Part shown: positions 2,506 through 54,449 of the stretch, piece after piece
How positions within the stretch are numbered: the stretch's first letter is position 1
Layout of the letters: the number at the start of each line of letters is the position of its first letter
Assembly (NCBI GenBank): GCA_037139695.1
Contig: JBAXFX010000001.1
Coordinates: 1 to 54,449 of the forward strand
DNA length: 54,449 bases
Direction: 5' to 3'
DNA from: Candidatus Moraniibacteriota bacterium
GTDB taxonomy: Bacteria; Patescibacteriota; Minisyncoccia; Moranbacterales; UBA1568
Position numbers and translations under genes: made by a program
The notes under the pieces: model-generated
Seen by the model: the letters and a program-made list of their open reading frames with translations, nothing else
Told to the model about the DNA's origin: nothing
Database searches by the model: none

Positions 2506-4338
2506 TTATTTCCTTATTCGTATATTCACGTATGGATCCGAAACGATATAGTCGGTAAACAGATTCTTTTCGCGTATTCTTTTATACGCGGAATCGGCAT
2601 AGTGACTGTTATTGGAATTGATAACACTCCTTTGAAATTCGATTGTAGTCGAACACATGGCCGTAAGTCCGGCGTCATGAATCCTATACCGGACAAGTCG
2701 TTCCCTGATAGGCTTCGCCCTGAATCCCATACCAAGGAGTCTTGCCCAAAAATCCCAATCCTCAGGCACATGCCCATCACCGATCGGCCAGTCCCTATAT
2801 CCCCCGCCCTGCTTCCATGCGTTCCTGGAAAAGACTGCCGTAGTAGGAATGGCATTATGGATGAGTATTTTTTCAAAACTCGTATTTGATACGTCCCAGC
2901 CCCTATCCGAATTTCCAAAAAACTGAAGACTCGAATACAGTATGTCATACTTTTCGCCCTCAAGTATTCTTAGGGCTTTTTCGAAATAAGAGGGCTCCAA
3001 CATATCATCCGCATCGAGACAACATATATATCTGCCACGTGCCTTCCTTATTCCGTAATTCCTGTTGTCTCCGACCAGATGTCGTCCTTCCCGAAAAAAT
3101 ATCCGTGTTTTCGGTTTTCTGAGAGCCTTCAATGTTCTCCTGGTGACACCGTCGGTCGAACCTCCGTCGACAACGATTATTTCGATATTTTCCACAGTTT
3201 GCACGAGGACCGAGTCTATGGCGGACTCGACATATTTTCCGTAATTGAAACAAGGGATGACAACACTTATGACTGGGTCGCCGTCCGGAATCCTCTCATT
3301 GACGACTTTTATTTTCCCCATGCGGAACAAAATATTTTTTTTGAAAAGAAACGCCATCTCGGAACAAAGGTCCCTCGTCCAAAATCCTATCGGGTACTTT
3401 TGTTTGATCCGTATATATAGGCTCCTGGTTTTCCAAAACAGAAAAGCCGTCACTCCTTTCGTTATGAAGGATTTCCCGAACAGGGCGCGGTTTTTTCTCA
3501 CAAACCCCCACCAACGGTCGGCACCGCCGATGCGTACGTTGATCCATGGCTTCTCACCGGTAAAATGAAGAACGGAGGCGTCATAGTGGCAATCGGCCAC
3601 ATCCTGGCTCGTCAATATTCCGTCCGCTACCAGATTCGGATAGTGAGGACCGCCGACCAAACCGGAAAATACGTTATATTTCGCCGGCAAATATCCGATC
3701 ATCCCCCGACAGCTGATATTCAGTATATCTTGATCCTGATAGACGAATAATTCCTTCGCCAGTTCCTCCCATCTTCTTTCCATTCCTGATTCCCTCATCT
3801 TCCCTAAGTCCATCACCATAAATCCGGCATTGAAATACTCCCCTCTCAGCCCGTCGAAATTTTTTTTGAAATATTCGTATGATCGCAGATGCCGATCGAA
3901 ATTATTCTTGTAGTTTACAAAGGGATCCCTTACTGCCGCCAAAAGGCGGCCTTCCAGATCGGTTTCCCATACAGCAGAGATATCTTTCAGAAACAGGATA
4001 TCCGAATCCGCATATATCACCTTGTCAATACCGGTCAAAAGCCCCGGCAAGGAAAGTCTGAAATAAGATGCCTCGGATATCCCCCTCGATACAAAGGCAT
4101 CCTTGAACCTATCATCCATCGCGAGAAATTCGATGTCCGAATCCTTCCCGGCCACATCCACGATGTGTCCCAATTCACGACGGTCACTCTCTGAAACATC
4201 CTTGGCACATACGCAGAATATCGCGTAATCCGCCTTTCCGTATGAACAACGCAAAAGACTGGCAATGGCAACCCCGGCCTGTCTGTAAAAGGCATGATCG
4301 AAACAAAAAACGATGTTCACTTTCCGCGTTACTGACAT
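2506..4338 (-). CDS. Two-domain glycosyltransferase: N-terminal GT8-like fused to C-terminal GT2
   Basis: 610-aa ORF. The N half has GT8-like 'NIVFCFDHAFYRQAGVAIASLL', 'YADSDILF' and 'FNAGFMVMDL'. The C half has GT2 'ISVVIPCFNYGKYVESAIDSVLVQT..IEIIVVDGGSTDG' and 'CLDADD'. Confidence 0.8.
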   Translation of the reverse strand: MSVTRKVNIVFCFDHAFYRQAGVAIASLLRCSYGKADYAIFCVCAKDVSESDRRELGHIVDVAGKDSDIEFLAMDDRFKDAFVSRGISEASYFRLSLPGLLTGIDKVIYADSDILFLKDISAVWETDLEGRLLAAVRDPFVNYKNNFDRHLRSYEYFKKNFDGLRGEYFNAGFMVMDLGKMRESGMERRWEELAKELFVYQDQDILNISCRGMIGYLPAKYNVFSGLVGGPHYPNLVADGILTSQDVADCHYDASVLHFTGEKPWINVRIGGADRWWGFVRKNRALFGKSFITKGVTAFLFWKTRSLYIRIKQKYPIGFWTRDLCSEMAFLFKKNILFRMGKIKVVNERIPDGDPVISVVIPCFNYGKYVESAIDSVLVQTVENIEIIVVDGGSTDGVTRRTLKALRKPKTRIFFREGRHLVGDNRNYGIRKARGRYICCLDADDMLEPSYFEKALRILEGEKYDILYSSLQFFGNSDRGWDVSNTSFEKILIHNAIPTTAVFSRNAWKQGGGYRDWPIGDGHVPEDWDFWARLLGMGFRAKPIRERLVRYRIHDAGLTAMCSTTIEFQRSVINSNNSHYADSAYKRIREKNLFTDYIVSDPYVNIRIRK

Positions 4339-8847: not shown

Positions 8848-9153
8848 CACTGGTACCCGATTAGGTTGGTGAAAGTGCTTCTTTTAGGCTAGGATAAAGT
8901 CAGAATCGACGTTTTATATTTTATAAAGTAAAAATGCTTAATTCGCAGTCACAAATCCCCCTCGCTCCCCCTTCCCGAAAGGGGGAGACATATCTTTTTT
9001 CGCTTGTACTGTAATCGATATCTCCCTTTTGCAAAGGGAGTACCGAGTCTTCGAGGGGAGGGATTTGTGCTTGATCGGTCGAAGTCGGCATATCATTTTT
9101 TAGAATACGTCGAGTAAAATATCTTTAAGAAACTACCTAATCGGGAACTAGTG
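8848..9153. repeat. Nested palindromic element, about 306 nt (repeat family 1 arms enclosing a family-3-like module)
   Basis: Terminal arms 8848..8870 'cactggtacccgattaggttggt' and 9131..9153 (reverse complement 'cactagttcccgattaggtagtt') match at 19/23. An inner inverted repeat spans 8950..9069 ('cacaaatcccc...gggagggatttgtg') and encloses two CTCCC/GGGAG hairpins. The right arm recurs at 54398..54449. Confidence 0.8.
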
Positions 9154-9242
9154 CCCCATTTTTGACCCTGTGCAGTCTCATGGACCCGATTACGGAGCAG
9201 TCTTTTGACTCACTGCTGCTTCTACTTCTTCACTTTTCACTA

Positions 9243-30013: not shown

Positions 30014-30555
30014 TGCTCGTAGAGCGTGAATGCCGCGAGAAAGAACCCCGTCTGCACCCGTTCCGATCCGATATAGTTTCGGATGTCATCGGGCGACATT
30101 CGGGAGGTCACGATATCTTCCGAACCATCGAGCTCCGGCTCCCCTTCGGTAAGGTCGCGTGCGAGAAAGATATGCCCCCGCTCATCGGTCAGGCCGGCGC
30201 TCGGATACACGATGCCGAGTTCTTCCCACCTTTCCGCGACGATTCCGGTCTCCTCCCGCAATTCCCGTTTGGCGGCTTCCACTGGTTCCTCGCCTTTTTC
30301 TATCATTCCGGCGGGAAATTCATACAGCCTTCGCCCGATGACGTATCTCATCTGTTGTGCGAGCACGAGGTTCCCCTGGGCGTCTTCCGCGACGATGACC
30401 GCCGCCCTGGCGCGCTCTACCACGAAATATTCTCCGGGCTTCCCGTCCGGACGGATGACCGTATCCTTGCGCACCGAAAACCAGGGATTCTTGTACGCCT
30501 GTTCCGATCCGGTCGTGGTCCATCCTTCGATTCCGTTCATAGCCTGTTCATGCAT
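29992..30555 (-). CDS. NUDIX hydrolase (ADP-ribose pyrophosphatase-like)
   Basis: Nudix box 'GMIEKGEEPVEAAKRELREETGI'. Overlaps both neighbouring genes. Confidence 0.85.
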   Translation of the reverse strand: MHEQAMNGIEGWTTTGSEQAYKNPWFSVRKDTVIRPDGKPGEYFVVERARAAVIVAEDAQGNLVLAQQMRYVIGRRLYEFPAGMIEKGEEPVEAAKRELREETGIVAERWEELGIVYPSAGLTDERGHIFLARDLTEGEPELDGSEDIVTSRMSPDDIRNYIGSERVQTGFFLAAFTLYEQWKRTNG

Positions 30556-31240
30556 TGATTATCCCGTCGAGATATTCCCTGATACGAAGTTGCTCCGCAA
30601 ACGTATTCTCCGCCTCGATGCTCACGTATTCCGGAAGATACTTTACATATTGCTTCACGTACTCATATTCCCGCAGATCGATCATATAATGGCTCCCCAC
30701 GCCGAGACGTTTCCGCTTCGACCGGTTCCGCAGAGATTTCATCGGGGACAGATGACAACATCCGATCGTGGAAACGCCCGACCGGAGATGACGGAGCAGT
30801 TTCAGGAACGCGCCCGGGGAACGAAACAGATTTCGGTAATGATGTTGCGTATCCAGACAGATCCCAGCATACTCGCCGACGATGCCATCGGGAAACGGGT
30901 GAAAATGATTCTCCACGAAAATCTTGTGCCGGTATTTCTCATATACTGGAACCAGACGCGGATGATCGTGAATATTGTACGCCACCGGATGATAAGTCGT
31001 TTCAAGATAAATGAGTTCGTCTTCGCCCATGTCGTCCCGAAGATGGATATGCGGGATACGAAGTCCGTCGATACCCTCGAGTAACGCGTACAGTTCATCA
31101 CGCTCCGACTTCTTCAGGAACGTCGGAAAAAGCGCGATTTCCTTAATCCCGAACCGTTTCATTTCTTCGACCTTGCCCCGCCAATCCGAAGCTGGCGTTG
31201 TCGTCAATCCGAGCAGTATCTTTTTCGGTTTCTGTTCCAT
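30548..31240 (-). CDS. Hypothetical protein (230 aa, His-rich; possibly a TIM-barrel-type metal enzyme)
   Basis: Clean ORF overlapping the NUDIX start. No confidently recognised motif. Confidence 0.55.
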   Translation of the reverse strand: MEQKPKKILLGLTTTPASDWRGKVEEMKRFGIKEIALFPTFLKKSERDELYALLEGIDGLRIPHIHLRDDMGEDELIYLETTYHPVAYNIHDHPRLVPVYEKYRHKIFVENHFHPFPDGIVGEYAGICLDTQHHYRNLFRSPGAFLKLLRHLRSGVSTIGCCHLSPMKSLRNRSKRKRLGVGSHYMIDLREYEYVKQYVKYLPEYVSIEAENTFAEQLRIREYLDGIINA

Positions 31241-31267
31241 CAGCGATCAGATAACAGTTAACTCTCC

Positions 31268-31325
31268 CACCCCTCAGTCTCGAGGACTCGACAGCTCCCC
31301 TCTGGCAGGGGAGCAGGAAGTCGAA
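31268..31325. repeat. Repeat family 3 module (hairpin GCTCCCC-loop-GGGGAGC), intergenic copy
   Basis: Hand alignment to 45028..45085 gives about 45/53 identical. Four of the eight mismatches fall in the hairpin loop while both stem arms are identical. A related module occurs in reverse orientation at 8950..9069. Confidence 0.8.
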
Positions 31326-31335
31326 GATACCAGAG

Positions 31336-31529
31336 TCTTAGTATCTATCTCAAATCTCAACGCCTATATAAGGCAAAAAATCCGCTTGCCGGCTGAAATC
31401 CGAAAATTTCGGCTGCAAACCATTCAAAAATCGTCAGGTTACAATAGTAGCCCTCCTCATTTTTCATTGTTTTCGCGCGAAATTTTCGGATTTGCAGCTC
31501 GACATGAGATTTGAGATAGATACTTAGAG
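31336..31529. repeat. Repeat family 2: long imperfect palindromic element (about 190 nt)
   Basis: Left arm 'tcttagtatctatctcaaatctca' (31336..31359) plus 'gctgaaatccgaaaatttcg' (31392..31411) is the reverse complement of right arm 31478..31529. The right arm recurs at 17..68. Confidence 0.8.
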
Positions 31530-31546
31530 TATTTTCTTTTCTTTTT

Positions 31547-32575
31547 TCACTTTACACTTTTCGCTTCCTTTTCTTTCCCATACTGCTTCCCATAATATTC
31601 CCTGTACGCCCCGCTCTTCACGTCTTTCCACCACTCCTCATGCGTCTTGAACCATTCGACCGTCTGCCGGAGCCCCTCGTCGAGCGTGACGGACGGCTCC
31701 CAGCCGAGTTCGTTCCTGATTTTCGAGAAATCGATCGCATACCGACGGTCGTGTCCGGGCCGATCCTTCACGTATTCGATCTTCTCTTCACCGAAGCCAA
31801 GAATGTCGAGCAATGTCCGCACGATGGCGAGATTCTCCCTCTCACCGTTCCCGCCGACGCAATAGGTTTCCCCGATCCGTCCCGTACGGAGCACGAGATC
31901 TATCGCCCGGCAATGATCCTCCACATGGAGCCAGTCGCGGACCTGTTTTCCATCACCGTATACCGGCACGTTCTTCCCTTCCAACAGGTTCGTGATCGCT
32001 AGCGGGATGAGTTTTTCCGGGAAGTGATAGGGGCCGTAATTGTTCGAACAGTTGGAAATCGTCACCGGCAGACCGTAGGTATGGAAGTAGGCGCGAACAA
32101 GATGGTCCGAACCGGCCTTTGACGCGCTGTACGGACTGCGCGGATCGTACGGGGTCACCTCCGAGAACGGCGCATCGTTCGGCCCGAGCGCGCCGAACAC
32201 CTCGTCCGTCGAGACATGATGGAACCGCTTCCCGCGATGGTTTCGCGCCGCGTCCAACAAGACCTGCGTCCCGATCACGTTCGTCCTTACGAATGCCGCC
32301 GGCTCCATGATGGACCGGTCCACGTGCGACTCGGCCACGAAATGGACGGCCGTGTCGCATTCGGCCATGAGTGGCTCCACCGCCTTCGGATCGGCGATAT
32401 CCCCCTTCACGAACCGCAGCCGCGGATTCCTTTCGGCCTCTTTCAGATTTTCCAGATTCCCCGCATACGTGAGGAGATCGAGCACGACCACTGAATCGTT
32501 CGGGTGTTCCCGCAACACGTGATGCACGAAATTCGACCCGATAAACCCCGCCCCGCCGGTGACAAGCAGTTTCAT
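31547..32575 (-). CDS. rfbB: dTDP-glucose 4,6-dehydratase
   Basis: 'MKLLVTGGAGFIGSNFV', 'SPYSASKAGSDHLVRAY' (YxxxK) and 'NCSNNYGPYHFPEKLIP'. Confidence 0.95.
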   Translation of the reverse strand: MKLLVTGGAGFIGSNFVHHVLREHPNDSVVVLDLLTYAGNLENLKEAERNPRLRFVKGDIADPKAVEPLMAECDTAVHFVAESHVDRSIMEPAAFVRTNVIGTQVLLDAARNHRGKRFHHVSTDEVFGALGPNDAPFSEVTPYDPRSPYSASKAGSDHLVRAYFHTYGLPVTISNCSNNYGPYHFPEKLIPLAITNLLEGKNVPVYGDGKQVRDWLHVEDHCRAIDLVLRTGRIGETYCVGGNGERENLAIVRTLLDILGFGEEKIEYVKDRPGHDRRYAIDFSKIRNELGWEPSVTLDEGLRQTVEWFKTHEEWWKDVKSGAYREYYGKQYGKEKEAKSVK

Positions 32576-44786: not shown

Positions 44787-45896
44787 CTACAGGATCAGCA
44801 TCGAGTCGCCGAAGGAATAGAAGGCGTAACCTTCACGGATCGCCTCCTCATAGAGGGAGACGAGACTACGCTTGGAACCTTTGTCCAAAAGGAACGCGTC
44901 GACGAGCAGCATAAGCGAACTCTTTGGCAAATGGAAGTTTGTGACGAGAATATCCGCAGAATGGAAATGATGCGGTGGGAAGATGAAGATATCGGTCTCG
45001 CCGGAAAACGGATGGAACCGCGTTTCGCACCCCTCAGTCTCAAAGTCTCGACAGCTCCCCTTTCCAAGGGGAGCAGGAAACGAAACGACCGACTCGAGCG
45101 TCCGGAGCGCGGTCGTGCCGACGGCGACGACGGGGCAACCTTCGGCTTTCGCACGGTTCAAGGCAACTGCAGCCCCTTTGGATACGGTAATGCGTTCGCG
45201 ATGCAGTGTTTTTTTCTTAAAATGCTCCTCACGAAGCGGTGCAAACGTACCCAGTCCCACGTCGAGTCCGATCTTCACGGTTTCGATTCCTTTCCCAGCA
45301 AACGATGTGCATACCGCATCCGTAAAATGAAGCGAGGCCGTCGGGGCCGCGACCGACGCGCCAGATCGAGCAAAGACGGTTTGATACCGCCGTCTGAGTT
45401 CCACTTCATCTCGTTTCGCATCCTTGTCTTCTAGATAGTGTGGGATCGGCGTTTCGCCATACGTATCGAGCAACGCGTCCAAAGATCGATCCGCATGCAA
45501 CCGAACATAAAACCGATTCTCGTCCTGCAAAACAACTTCAAAAAAACTCCCATCAGGAAAGGATAGTTTCATTCCCGGAATGCATTTCCGGTCGACTAAA
45601 ACGGGGATATTTCCCGTCGCATCAACCATCTCGTTCGCGAGCACGAAAACTTCGATCTTCCCGCCAGTCTCCTTGGTTAACATAAGTCTGGCCGGCACGA
45701 CCCAGGTCTCGTTCAAAACGACCGTCGCCCCAACAGGAAGATACTTCGCCAGATTCGCGAACGTATCGTGAATCACCGTATCACTCGCGGTATCATACAC
45801 AAAGAGCCGAGCCGAATCACGCGGTTCAACGCCCTGTTTCCGTATCAGCTCCGGAGGGAGGTGATAGTCGTATATTCCCAGATCCTCGTATTCCAT
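44787..45896 (-). CDS. queA: S-adenosylmethionine:tRNA ribosyltransferase-isomerase QueA, carrying an in-frame repeat-derived insertion
   Basis: 'YDYHLPPELI', 'VGTTALRTLES', 'LVTNFHLPKSSLMLLV' and 'FYSFGDSMLI'. The start is set at MEYEDL (45896); the ORF extends to 45998. Confidence 0.9.
   Translation of the reverse strand: MEYEDLGIYDYHLPPELIRKQGVEPRDSARLFVYDTASDTVIHDTFANLAKYLPVGATVVLNETWVVPARLMLTKETGGKIEVFVLANEMVDATGNIPVLVDRKCIPGMKLSFPDGSFFEVVLQDENRFYVRLHADRSLDALLDTYGETPIPHYLEDKDAKRDEVELRRRYQTVFARSGASVAAPTASLHFTDAVCTSFAGKGIETVKIGLDVGLGTFAPLREEHFKKKTLHRERITVSKGAAVALNRAKAEGCPVVAVGTTALRTLESVVSFPAPLGKGSCRDFETEGCETRFHPFSGETDIFIFPPHHFHSADILVTNFHLPKSSLMLLVDAFLLDKGSKRSLVSLYEEAIREGYAFYSFGDSMLIL
45028..45085. 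repeat. Repeat family 3 module located in frame inside queA
   Basis: About 45/53 nt identical to intergenic 31268..31320, with identical hairpin stem arms gctcccc/ggggagc. It encodes 'FPAPLGKGSCRDFETEGC' in the loop between 'RTLES' and the 'G.TDIFI' region, which is about 16 aa shorter in B. subtilis QueA as I recall it. Confidence 0.8.
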
Positions 45897-46036: not shown

Positions 46037-46112
46037 GCCGATGTAGCTCAGTTGGTAGAGCAACGCACTCGTAACGCGTAGGTCGTCGGTTCAAATCCGA
46101 CCATCGGCTCCA
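46037..46112 (+). tRNA. tRNA-Thr (anticodon CGU)
   Basis: Hand-folded cloverleaf. Acceptor GCCGATG/CATCGGC, D arm GCTC-AGTTGGTA-GAGC, anticodon loop CTCGTAA (CGT), T arm GTCGG-TTCAAAT-CCGAC, and an encoded CCA. There is one A-C mismatch at the base of the anticodon stem. Confidence 0.9.
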
Positions 46113-54125: not shown

Positions 54126-54397
54126 TACGACCAAGAATCCGATCGCCACAGAAAGCGACCATCGAACCGCGTCCTTAACTTTATACCACTCACAGAAGCT
54201 GATTACGCGTTTTATTGTGTCCTGTCTTCCTGCCCGTATTGCCATGCCTGTCCATACCGCTACGTCAGCCCGGCCGGCCTGATGGCAGTCATGGCGACGG
54301 GCGAAACGTTACGGGCTGAAAAAGCGTTGCTCGCCCGAATCACTTCGTAAAACGTCGCAGGCAGGCAGGTGCGAGGGAATGAATATACCTATTCAGG

Positions 54398-54449
54398 CAC
54401 CGGTTCCCGATGAGGTGGTTTCTTAAAGATATCTTACTCGACATATTCT
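54398..54449. repeat. Repeat family 1 arm, truncated by the window end
   Basis: 46/52 nt identical (hand count) to the reverse complement of 9102..9153. Confidence 0.85.

Follow-up and report, generated by a model that had tools for sequence, protein, structure and literature searches.

Why does queA, a tRNA-modification gene, contain in a Candidatus Moraniibacteriota bacterium a palindromic stretch of DNA that also stands between genes elsewhere on the same contig, and how does the gene remain open around it? The DNA analysed here (hereafter the window) is 54,449 nt long, and its QueA product, P0001, is a 100% match to an NCBI protein of a Candidatus Moraniibacteriota metagenome-assembled genome (MAG), the contig of which is the whole window. 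A first-pass annotation, made from the letters of the window, had drawn attention to the two copies and had likened the one in queA to the palindromic repeats that enter open reading frames (ORFs) of Rickettsia without disrupting them. The module proves to be repetitive DNA that has been inserted in several orientations and frames, with those frames preserved. Taking the evidence together, we consider it quite probable that the best explanation is a solo copy of a short two-hairpin mobile repeat, the full form of which would be a cassette built around a small endonuclease gene of the DUF559 family.

The module within queA

The two window copies, at 45025-45079 within queA and at 31265-31319 between genes, form a gap-free alignment of 55 nt with 85% identity in a within-window repeat search (family D4), and blastn-short, likewise confined to the window, joins them over 52 nt (86.5%, E = 1.75e-8). 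The pattern CCCCTCAGTCTC-N5-CTCGACAGCTCCCCT has exact matches at only these two places in the window and in 0/100 shuffles. The alignments uphold the identity of about 85% to a copy at 31268..31325 that the first-pass annotation had estimated by hand. Its account of the differences also stands: hairpin 1 has three of the eight mismatches, in its inner part and loop, the loop region of hairpin 2 accounts for another four and the last is at the left end, and the arms GCTCCCC/GGGGAGC are the same in both copies. The queA copy consists of TCGCACCCCTCA, a decayed hairpin 1 (45037-45052, GTCTCA-AAGT-CTCGAC), a single A, hairpin 2 (45054-45074, GCTCCCCT-TTCCA-AGGGGAGC) and AGGAA, and is recovered by a profile of Moranbacteria copies at 59.9 bits (nhmmer, E = 4e-17). 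The intergenic copy, with hairpin 1 at 31277-31292 (GTCTCG-AGGA-CTCGAC) and hairpin 2 at 31294-31314, is nearer to the consensus.

The host gene is a true queA, as judged from full-length matches of its product to the solved structures 1wdi, 1vky and 1yy3 (E = 1e-57 to 1e-63) and from the precomputed annotation of PF02547 in all QueA homologues. The gene is encoded on the minus strand and the module lies on the plus strand, antisense to it; the module codes in frame for residues F273-C290, FPAPLGKGSCRDFETEGC(E), giving junction-spanning peptides such as ...ESVVSFPAPLGK and GSCRDFETEGCETR. The solved QueAs 1wdi and 1vky show a gap of 13-18 residues exactly at the insert, and four equally close Moranbacteria proteins (P0006, P0007, P0011 and P0013) have a short loop without it in an alignment of 36 QueAs; close orthologues that lack the module also lack the peptide. 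The frame-keeping, extended loop between RTLES and TDIFI proposed in the first-pass annotation is thus borne out. In an AlphaFold2 model of the window protein (mean pLDDT 79.7) the module stretch runs between helix 261-270 (RTLES) and strand 297-301 (TDIFI), with residues 275-289 as coil at pLDDT < 50, and the insert is accordingly modelled as lying where the fold tolerates insertion.

An inverted flank around the queA copy (CGTTTCG/CGAAACG, fold z = -3) was taken as chance, since it is absent from the orthologous insert of L003.

Repeated insertion into QueA

The 36 Moranbacteria QueAs vary at several sites, and some carry peptides that correspond to other reading frames of the same module DNA. 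At site 1, after NEI/NEM, P0110 (locus L001) reads NPSVSQTRQLPLERGA and P0067 (L002) reads PLSLEDSTAPLGKGG; these peptides correspond to the two remaining plus-strand frames of the window copy, and the queA DNA of both loci contains the module in sense at this site, at 91-97% identity. The queA of L003 (P0003) has an antisense module at site 3, as in the window, and P0002 and P0019 (with ...LPSERGAGNEE) and P0044 (with TPQSRRLDSSP) bear inserts in the same loop as the window copy; of the QueAs whose insert has the opposite orientation, P0002 is the closest. That the same module occurs at another queA site, in sense and in other frames, is decisive in showing that the insert is repeat DNA and not a feature of QueA.

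The site-3 insert is patchily distributed on a neighbour-joining tree of QueA, and two hairpin-1 subfamilies (SCR..ETEG and SSRVFEGEG) account for the antisense version. Three orientation and frame versions are found in one QueA loop across lineages, and these, with the two antisense subfamilies, require at least 3-4 independent insertions into a single loop of ~10 residues. The inserts of L001 and L002 are 114 nt long and have the same bracket arrangement as the DUF559 cassettes described below, with a spacer of 18-20 nt; from their layout, each is a gene-less cassette, in frame and taken to be translated.

A separate set of peptides (IPRQARNDS, LPARIATRIVAGGRGN, CFACARNDKRE and SFASVQDDKRN) recurs in different proteins and sites, among them QueA site 2 after HYLEE, QueA site 3 and MnmA of L030 at ~140-150; by their sequences they look like translations of another widespread in-frame repeat.

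Structure and distribution of the module

Across ~125 unique copies the module has the consensus (CTCC)CACCCCTCA, hairpin 1 with a 6-bp stem and 4-nt loop, AG, hairpin 2 and AGG(AA), with a nearly constant length of ~56 nt. Hairpin 2 comprises the two arms named above around a loop of 3-5 nt. Hairpin 1 is variable in sequence and keeps its pairing, as in GTCGGC/GCCGAC, GTCACG/CGTGAC, CCCGCC/GGCGGG and GTCATG/CATGAC. In the subtype present in the window, xxxTCG-NNGA-CTCxxx, only the outer three pairs and a closing G-C pair form, and those outer pairs covary (GTC/GAC, CCC/GGG, CCT/AGG, CCG/CGG).

Covariation was measured on 61 distinct copies collected with a search pattern that left hairpin 1 free (N16). 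All six of its pairs (6/6) change on both sides, and the number of cells with double changes is 80, compared with 28 +/- 4 in shuffles, none of which reached 80 (0/500), and with at most 12 in slid controls. Hairpin 1 is therefore under structural constraint. Hairpin 2 is 98% paired and invariant, which is uninformative either way as the search pattern itself prescribed the 5' arm. Compensatory changes, suggested as a check by the first-pass annotation, are thus present in hairpin 1 and absent from the GCTCCCC/GGGGAGC hairpin that it had noticed, the latter being essentially invariant. The module is free of stops in 5/6 frames; the sixth is closed by a stop arising from the conserved TCA.

A scan with a strict pattern over one genome per species returned 28 stretches, ~15 of them in Moranbacteria MAGs with several per MAG, the others forming a distinct subfamily in MAGs labelled, as given, Clostridia, Oscillospiraceae, Bacteroidaceae and Marinamargulisbacteria. 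A metagenome scan with CACCCCTCA-N16-AGCTCCCCT, which leaves hairpin 1 free, gave at least 118 stretches. The corresponding scan of viral contigs had no match, so that there is no sign of a phage vector in that set.

Copies of a sister subfamily, ATCCCTCAGTC..GACAGCTCCCTTTACACAAGGGAGCC, are often followed by a T-run (a subset of L009-L031, and L088, L045, L098 and L106). This subfamily co-occurs with a second hairpin repeat, CCTCCCCTGCAAGGGGAGGTGG...GGAGGGGTG, on contigs labelled Clostridia/Oscillospiraceae and in human-gut metagenomes, and at its loci the repeats flank DUF559 as direct repeats.

In-frame copies in other housekeeping genes

Copies were assigned to genes or to intergenic regions by a codon-usage log-odds score, trained on the genes of the window, which recovers the known cases. 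Among 80 classifiable unique copies, 55 are intergenic and 25 (31%) are intragenic with the frame kept, the tabulation that the first-pass annotation had called for. Nineteen of the intragenic copies are in sense and use three frames; the six antisense copies share a single frame, PAPLxxGSxRVxExEG. The intragenic share is far below the value of at least 78% expected from coding density (binomial p = 5.6e-21), and most genic insertions have therefore been removed; yet a third of the survivors are genic.

The hosts were identified by Pfam, with domains on both sides of the insert, and include QueA, PheT, LeuRS, ValRS, MnmA, TatD, UvrA, UvrB, a MutY-like glycosylase, DinB, DnaX, an AlkD-like protein, a GT4 glycosyltransferase, FemAB, Wzy_C and a reverse transcriptase. 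With at least 15 unrelated housekeeping genes carrying an in-frame module, the resemblance to Rickettsia proposed for the queA copy is well supported, and each of the checks suggested in the first-pass annotation came out in its favour. Since every intragenic copy keeps the frame, translation and not removal is the most likely fate of the insert.

Filled and empty versions of orthologous sites were found twice. In the atpE-atpF spacer, L016 and L041 have the module and L004 and L150 do not, with flanks of 80-84% identity. In MnmA, it is present in L030 (GLNWISG-NSPLSLADSTAPLGKRSRKREEWGN-KKMNV), and L102 and L068 show the empty site (GLNWIAG-AAPE-KTKLS).

Tandem copies of the module occur in L005 (5133-5293), L046 (~3018-3073) and L131 (~1573-1717; reverse-strand coordinates). 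Two tandem copies lie at the N-terminus of UvrA, and the three of L131 have a period of 72 nt (24 codons). The LeuRS of L141 (3453-6951) has, besides the module, a NUDIX domain after its editing domain (Pfam E = 3e-13).

Association with a DUF559 nuclease

Clustering of the ORFs within 2 kb of module copies produced one recurrent small gene and no recurrent transposase. The recurrent product belongs to PF04480 (DUF559; E = 1e-29 to 1e-38, 100-129 bits, against a gathering cut-off of 20.6), to our knowledge a very widespread small endonuclease domain without an assigned role. Among solved structures the nearest is the uncharacterised 3hrl (E = 2.5e-21); the intron homing endonuclease 3r3p matches only marginally (E = 0.25).

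Among loci selected by the module, every DUF559 gene is flanked on both sides, with modules ~5-210 nt from the gene. In L016, L041 and L008 (Moranbacteria) and in L023 the flanking modules form an inverted pair with their CACCCCTCA ends toward the gene; in L106 and L088/L045, of the Firmicutes type, DUF559 lies between direct composite repeats. An unbiased set was obtained by searching with the DUF559 protein (1324 homologues; the named organisms among the best hits are lineages of the Candidate Phyla Radiation, CPR) and fetching six loci by protein alone, and 6/6 were bracketed by modules. Upstream, the bracket has the form [hairpin 2-(hairpin 1)-TGAGGGGTG] and ends ~10-40 nt before the start codon; downstream, it has the form [CACCCCTCA-(hairpin 1)-hairpin 2] and begins ~5-20 nt past the stop. 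The modules are canonical in L150, L152 and L153 and diverged or short in L157, L159 and L160, whose DUF559 proteins are more distant. Counting duplicates once, 11/11 independent DUF559 loci are flanked on both sides, nine inverted and two direct, and the host neighbours vary in most of them (TP_methylase, an ABC transporter, PolA, trigger factor). The first-pass annotation could not have seen this partner gene, as the window holds none.

Very short contigs carry many of the DUF559 genes, a pattern suggesting that the assembly of metagenomes breaks off at the cassette; one homologue among P0121-P0240, P0126, occurs on 22 contigs, of which 19 are shorter than 2 kb. Two different DUF559 genes (P0150 and P0237) share one 82-kb contig, and the MAG JAAXTX01 has at least two DUF559 cassettes (L020 and L152).

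A proposed mobile repeat and its alternatives

The mobile repeat that we favour would work as follows. Its full form would be a small selfish cassette in which a gene of ~115 aa, encoding a DUF559 endonuclease of the Vsr-like PD-(D/E)xK type, lies between two inverted modules that serve as its recognition substrate or terminal repeats. The nuclease would recognise the module, probably folded as a single strand or cruciform, a form suggested by the covariation of hairpin 1, and spread would occur through nuclease-induced breaks or nicks and copy-repair, not through a classical transposase. Gene-less doublets and solo modules would be non-autonomous derivatives of the cassette. One such copy would have entered queA in antisense, among the codons for the surface loop between RTLES and TDIFI, where the open frames, together with selection for in-frame copies in permissive loops, would leave queA intact, and it would be translated there as an 18-residue loop predicted to be disordered.

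A more ambitious form of this proposal makes DUF559 the engine of a new class of repeat system, in which a Vsr-like nuclease propagates the modules that bracket it through the genome, in pairs or singly, with some entering essential genes in frame. It would amount to a REP/RAYT-like arrangement (repetitive extragenic palindromes and REP-associated tyrosine transposases) resting on a PD-(D/E)xK nuclease, distributed across CPR with a sister subfamily in gut Firmicutes. We put this forward tentatively, at somewhat less than even odds; the data also allow DUF559 merely to home into pre-existing repeats.

Several observations weigh against the mobile-cassette explanation or its parts. The flanks of the 125 unique copies contain zero information, with no target-site duplication, terminal inverted repeat or target motif. 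In the filled/empty pairs the flanks are 70-84% identical and the adjacent sequence has changed, and with junctions blurred in this way the insertion chemistry is not readable from them. The direct repeats around DUF559 in L088, L045 and L106 would also fit a nuclease that homes into repeats already present. In L150 and L153 the cassette occupies the same place, upstream of tatD, so that some copies are vertically inherited and not recently moved. Within the 54,449 nt of the window there is no DUF559 gene. The putative role of DUF559 in module spread is drawn from association, and the probable translation of the queA insert is read from frame preservation.

Among the competing explanations, a miniature inverted-repeat transposable element (MITE) or a REP/REPIN (REP doublet) moved by a DDE or HUH transposase (RAYT or IS200/IS605-like) encoded elsewhere in the genome would make DUF559 a bystander or a repeat-targeting homing gene. 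It draws on the inverted doublets of L006, L021, L028 and the window (8950-9069), on hairpin covariation of the kind typical of folded-single-strand recognition in IS200/IS605 elements and REPs, on the existing description of REPINs and of a flanked-gene arrangement (PMC3337134), and on the direct repeats in L088, L045 and L106, which suit homing into repeats. The solo copies, however, are without terminal inverted repeats, target duplication or a conserved flank, and no GTAG or CGTC tag is present. In tblastn searches with approximate RAYT and IS200 TnpA queries, nothing credible appeared in 1.24 Mb of module-bearing loci, which are genome fragments; the best match (E = 0.06) was antisense inside a hydrogenase-like gene, and DUF559 was all that the ORF clustering within 2 kb had returned. 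We regard this explanation as unlikely.

A structured RNA kept by the host (a cis-regulatory element, small RNA or mRNA stabiliser), of which the intragenic copies would be incidental, accords with the strong covariation of hairpin 1, the invariance of hairpin 2 and the conservation of the single-stranded parts; some Firmicutes-type copies are followed by a terminator-like T-run, and the intergenic window copy, closely preceded by a promoter-like site, probably belongs to a 5' leader. A host RNA does not readily account for copies that face either way with respect to genes and occupy four frames inside unrelated ORFs, and the filled and empty orthologous sites and the constant bracketing of a nuclease gene fit a mobile element better. 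At the gathering score of Rfam 15 only tRNA-Thr passes, and with the threshold raised to E = 10 for both module and cassette the best match (E = 1.2) is noise. The terminator scan found no terminator-like site in 31150-31650, and the Moranbacteria-type module ends in AGGAA, not in a T-run. This makes the host RNA quite improbable.

The remaining idea, that a duplicated queA fragment or conserved QueA loop was copied to the intergenic site without any repeat family, is suggested by the presence of only two good window copies, one of them in queA, and is refuted, to near certainty, by more than 140 further copies in other genomes, genes and frames and on both strands, by similarity that ends at the module ends and by close QueA orthologues without the peptide.

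Relation to known repeat systems

The closest parallel is with the Rickettsia palindromic elements (RPEs; Ogata et al. 2000), summarised in PMC10969869 as palindromic repeats of ~100-150 bp found in frame in genes. As in that account, the module is an interspersed palindromic repeat that is both intergenic and in frame in many unrelated housekeeping genes, is probably translated with the host protein, occupies positions that the fold tolerates and resides in a reduced-genome bacterium. It differs in being ~56 nt long with two hairpins and no known sequence resemblance, in using four frames where each RPE is described as having one conserved peptide frame, and in being tied to DUF559 where no gene is known to be associated with RPEs. 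The hosts also differ, Rickettsia in the one case and in the other Patescibacteria and, for a related subfamily, MAGs that bear the label Clostridia. Judged by size and composition, homology to the RPE families is unlikely, and the module is not classed among them.

With REP/REPIN-RAYT systems (PMC3337134, PMC3116915, PMC3733652) the module shares short imperfect palindromes that occur as singlets and inverted doublets and a putative mover gene flanked by repeats, and it was from a gene flanked by genome-dispersed repeats that the tie between REPINs and RAYTs was argued (PMC3337134). The type of repeat also seems to change with the gene, as the distant DUF559 proteins of L157, L159 and L160 have diverged modules. 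RAYT, however, is an HUH tyrosine transposase and not a Vsr-like PD-(D/E)xK nuclease, and no Y1 transposase was found in the 1.24 Mb of fragmentary loci with the approximate queries. REPs and REPINs have a GTAG/CGTC tag and a palindrome of 20-40 nt and are extragenic, whereas the module has no tag, begins with a CACCCCTCA 5' part and is intragenic in 31% of cases. Set against RAYT, DUF559 occurs in several copies per genome.

Vsr-like nucleases are known as free-standing homing endonucleases (Dassa et al. 2009, PMC2677866), and their grouping into clades is given in PMC3424549. A small Vsr-fold nuclease gene as a selfish insert is common to these and to the present cassette, and hairpins are marked upstream of the ORFs in PMC2677866. 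Those homing genes lie between split-intein halves or in group I introns and home to one specific gene (PMC2677866), whereas DUF559 lies between copies of a genome-wide repeat, and I-Bth0305I, the enzyme of structure 3r3p, is the marginal relative noted above. ERIC, Correia and Anabaena MITEs resemble the module as small non-coding repeats with occasional in-frame fusions to host ORFs (PMC10969869); they have terminal inverted repeats, target-site duplications and an origin from insertion sequence (IS) transposases, none of which is seen for the module. The 125 unique copies, having neither inverted termini nor a target duplication, do not form a MITE family in this sense, although the doublets do form inverted pairs. 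In the incompletely searchable literature, no MITE-, REP- or RPE-like repeats in Patescibacteria and no link between DUF559 and repeats were found.

The module thus offers a second large case of repeats apparently translated inside essential genes, in a phylum far from Rickettsia, with hosts that include aminoacyl-tRNA synthetases, DNA repair and replication proteins and tRNA-modification enzymes. It bears on the origin of new protein loops and on the decorated look of CPR proteins, many of whose odd low-complexity loops would be explained if the more ambitious account of DUF559 is true. Inserts of this kind swell alignments, interrupt assemblies and give rise to spurious hypothetical ORFs. 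The constant bracketing by modules provides a testable hypothesis of function for a very common domain and suggests that repeats may move without a classical transposase; should the DUF559 mechanism hold, it would define a new class of repeat-nuclease system.

Other features of the window

The module copies, their host gene and the diverged doublet are listed in Table 1.

Table 1. Location of the module copies and related features in the window
Feature	Position	Strand	Evidence
Solo module in queA	45024..45080	+ (antisense to gene)	repeat search, blastn, nhmmer, translation
queA, S-adenosylmethionine:tRNA ribosyltransferase-isomerase, 369 aa, host of the insert	44787..45896	-	PDB matches, PF02547, NCBI protein match
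Intergenic solo module, better preserved	31264..31320	+	repeat search, blastn, nhmmer (64.4 bits), codon score (intergenic)
Palindromic doublet, 120 nt, diverged subfamily	8950..9069		nhmmer, counterpart in L006, fold z-scores

The neighbours of queA are tRNA-Thr (46037-46112), a DsbA-like thioredoxin, a small ORF without a Pfam match and a YkuD transpeptidase, and none of them points to a special context. The intergenic module lies upstream of a minus-strand gene without a Pfam match, at 24 nt from its ATG (31240), and downstream of a dTDP-glucose dehydratase-like gene (31547-32575, by Pfam). A single promoter-like match (31353-31324, minus strand; TTGAGA-18-TATCTT with an upstream TG) stands just upstream of it and probably places it in the 5' leader of the gene at 30548-31240.

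The first-pass annotation had also pointed to a third, reverse-oriented relative within 8950..9069. A weak reverse-oriented match to the module profile is indeed found there (9022-9055, minus strand, E = 0.012), but the element is of a diverged subfamily and comprises two inverted modules. A short module (CCCCCTCG with the hairpin CTCCCCCTT..AAGGGGGAG) faces an inverted longer one (9022-9066, reverse strand, CCCTCCCCTCGAAGACTCGGTA with the hairpin CTCCCTTTGCAAAAGGGAG); the CCCCTC ends point outward and the interior is free of genes, an arrangement opposite to that of the DUF559 bracket. Fold z-scores here are -4.0 and -6.0, and the element has a clear counterpart in L006 (6392-6433).

Two further repeat families occur in the window. 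A second, AT-richer family forms an imperfect palindrome of ~220 nt (31323-31541) that directly abuts the intergenic module, with arms at 31323-31359/31505-31541 (81%) and 31396-31429/31460-31493 (79%); one arm occurs again at the contig start (17-67, 94%; also 44-67). The third is a 54-nt inverted repeat at 9102-9155 and 54396-54449 (89% identity), of which one copy adjoins the palindrome at 8950-9069 and the other is the very end of the contig, which may therefore end in a repeat.

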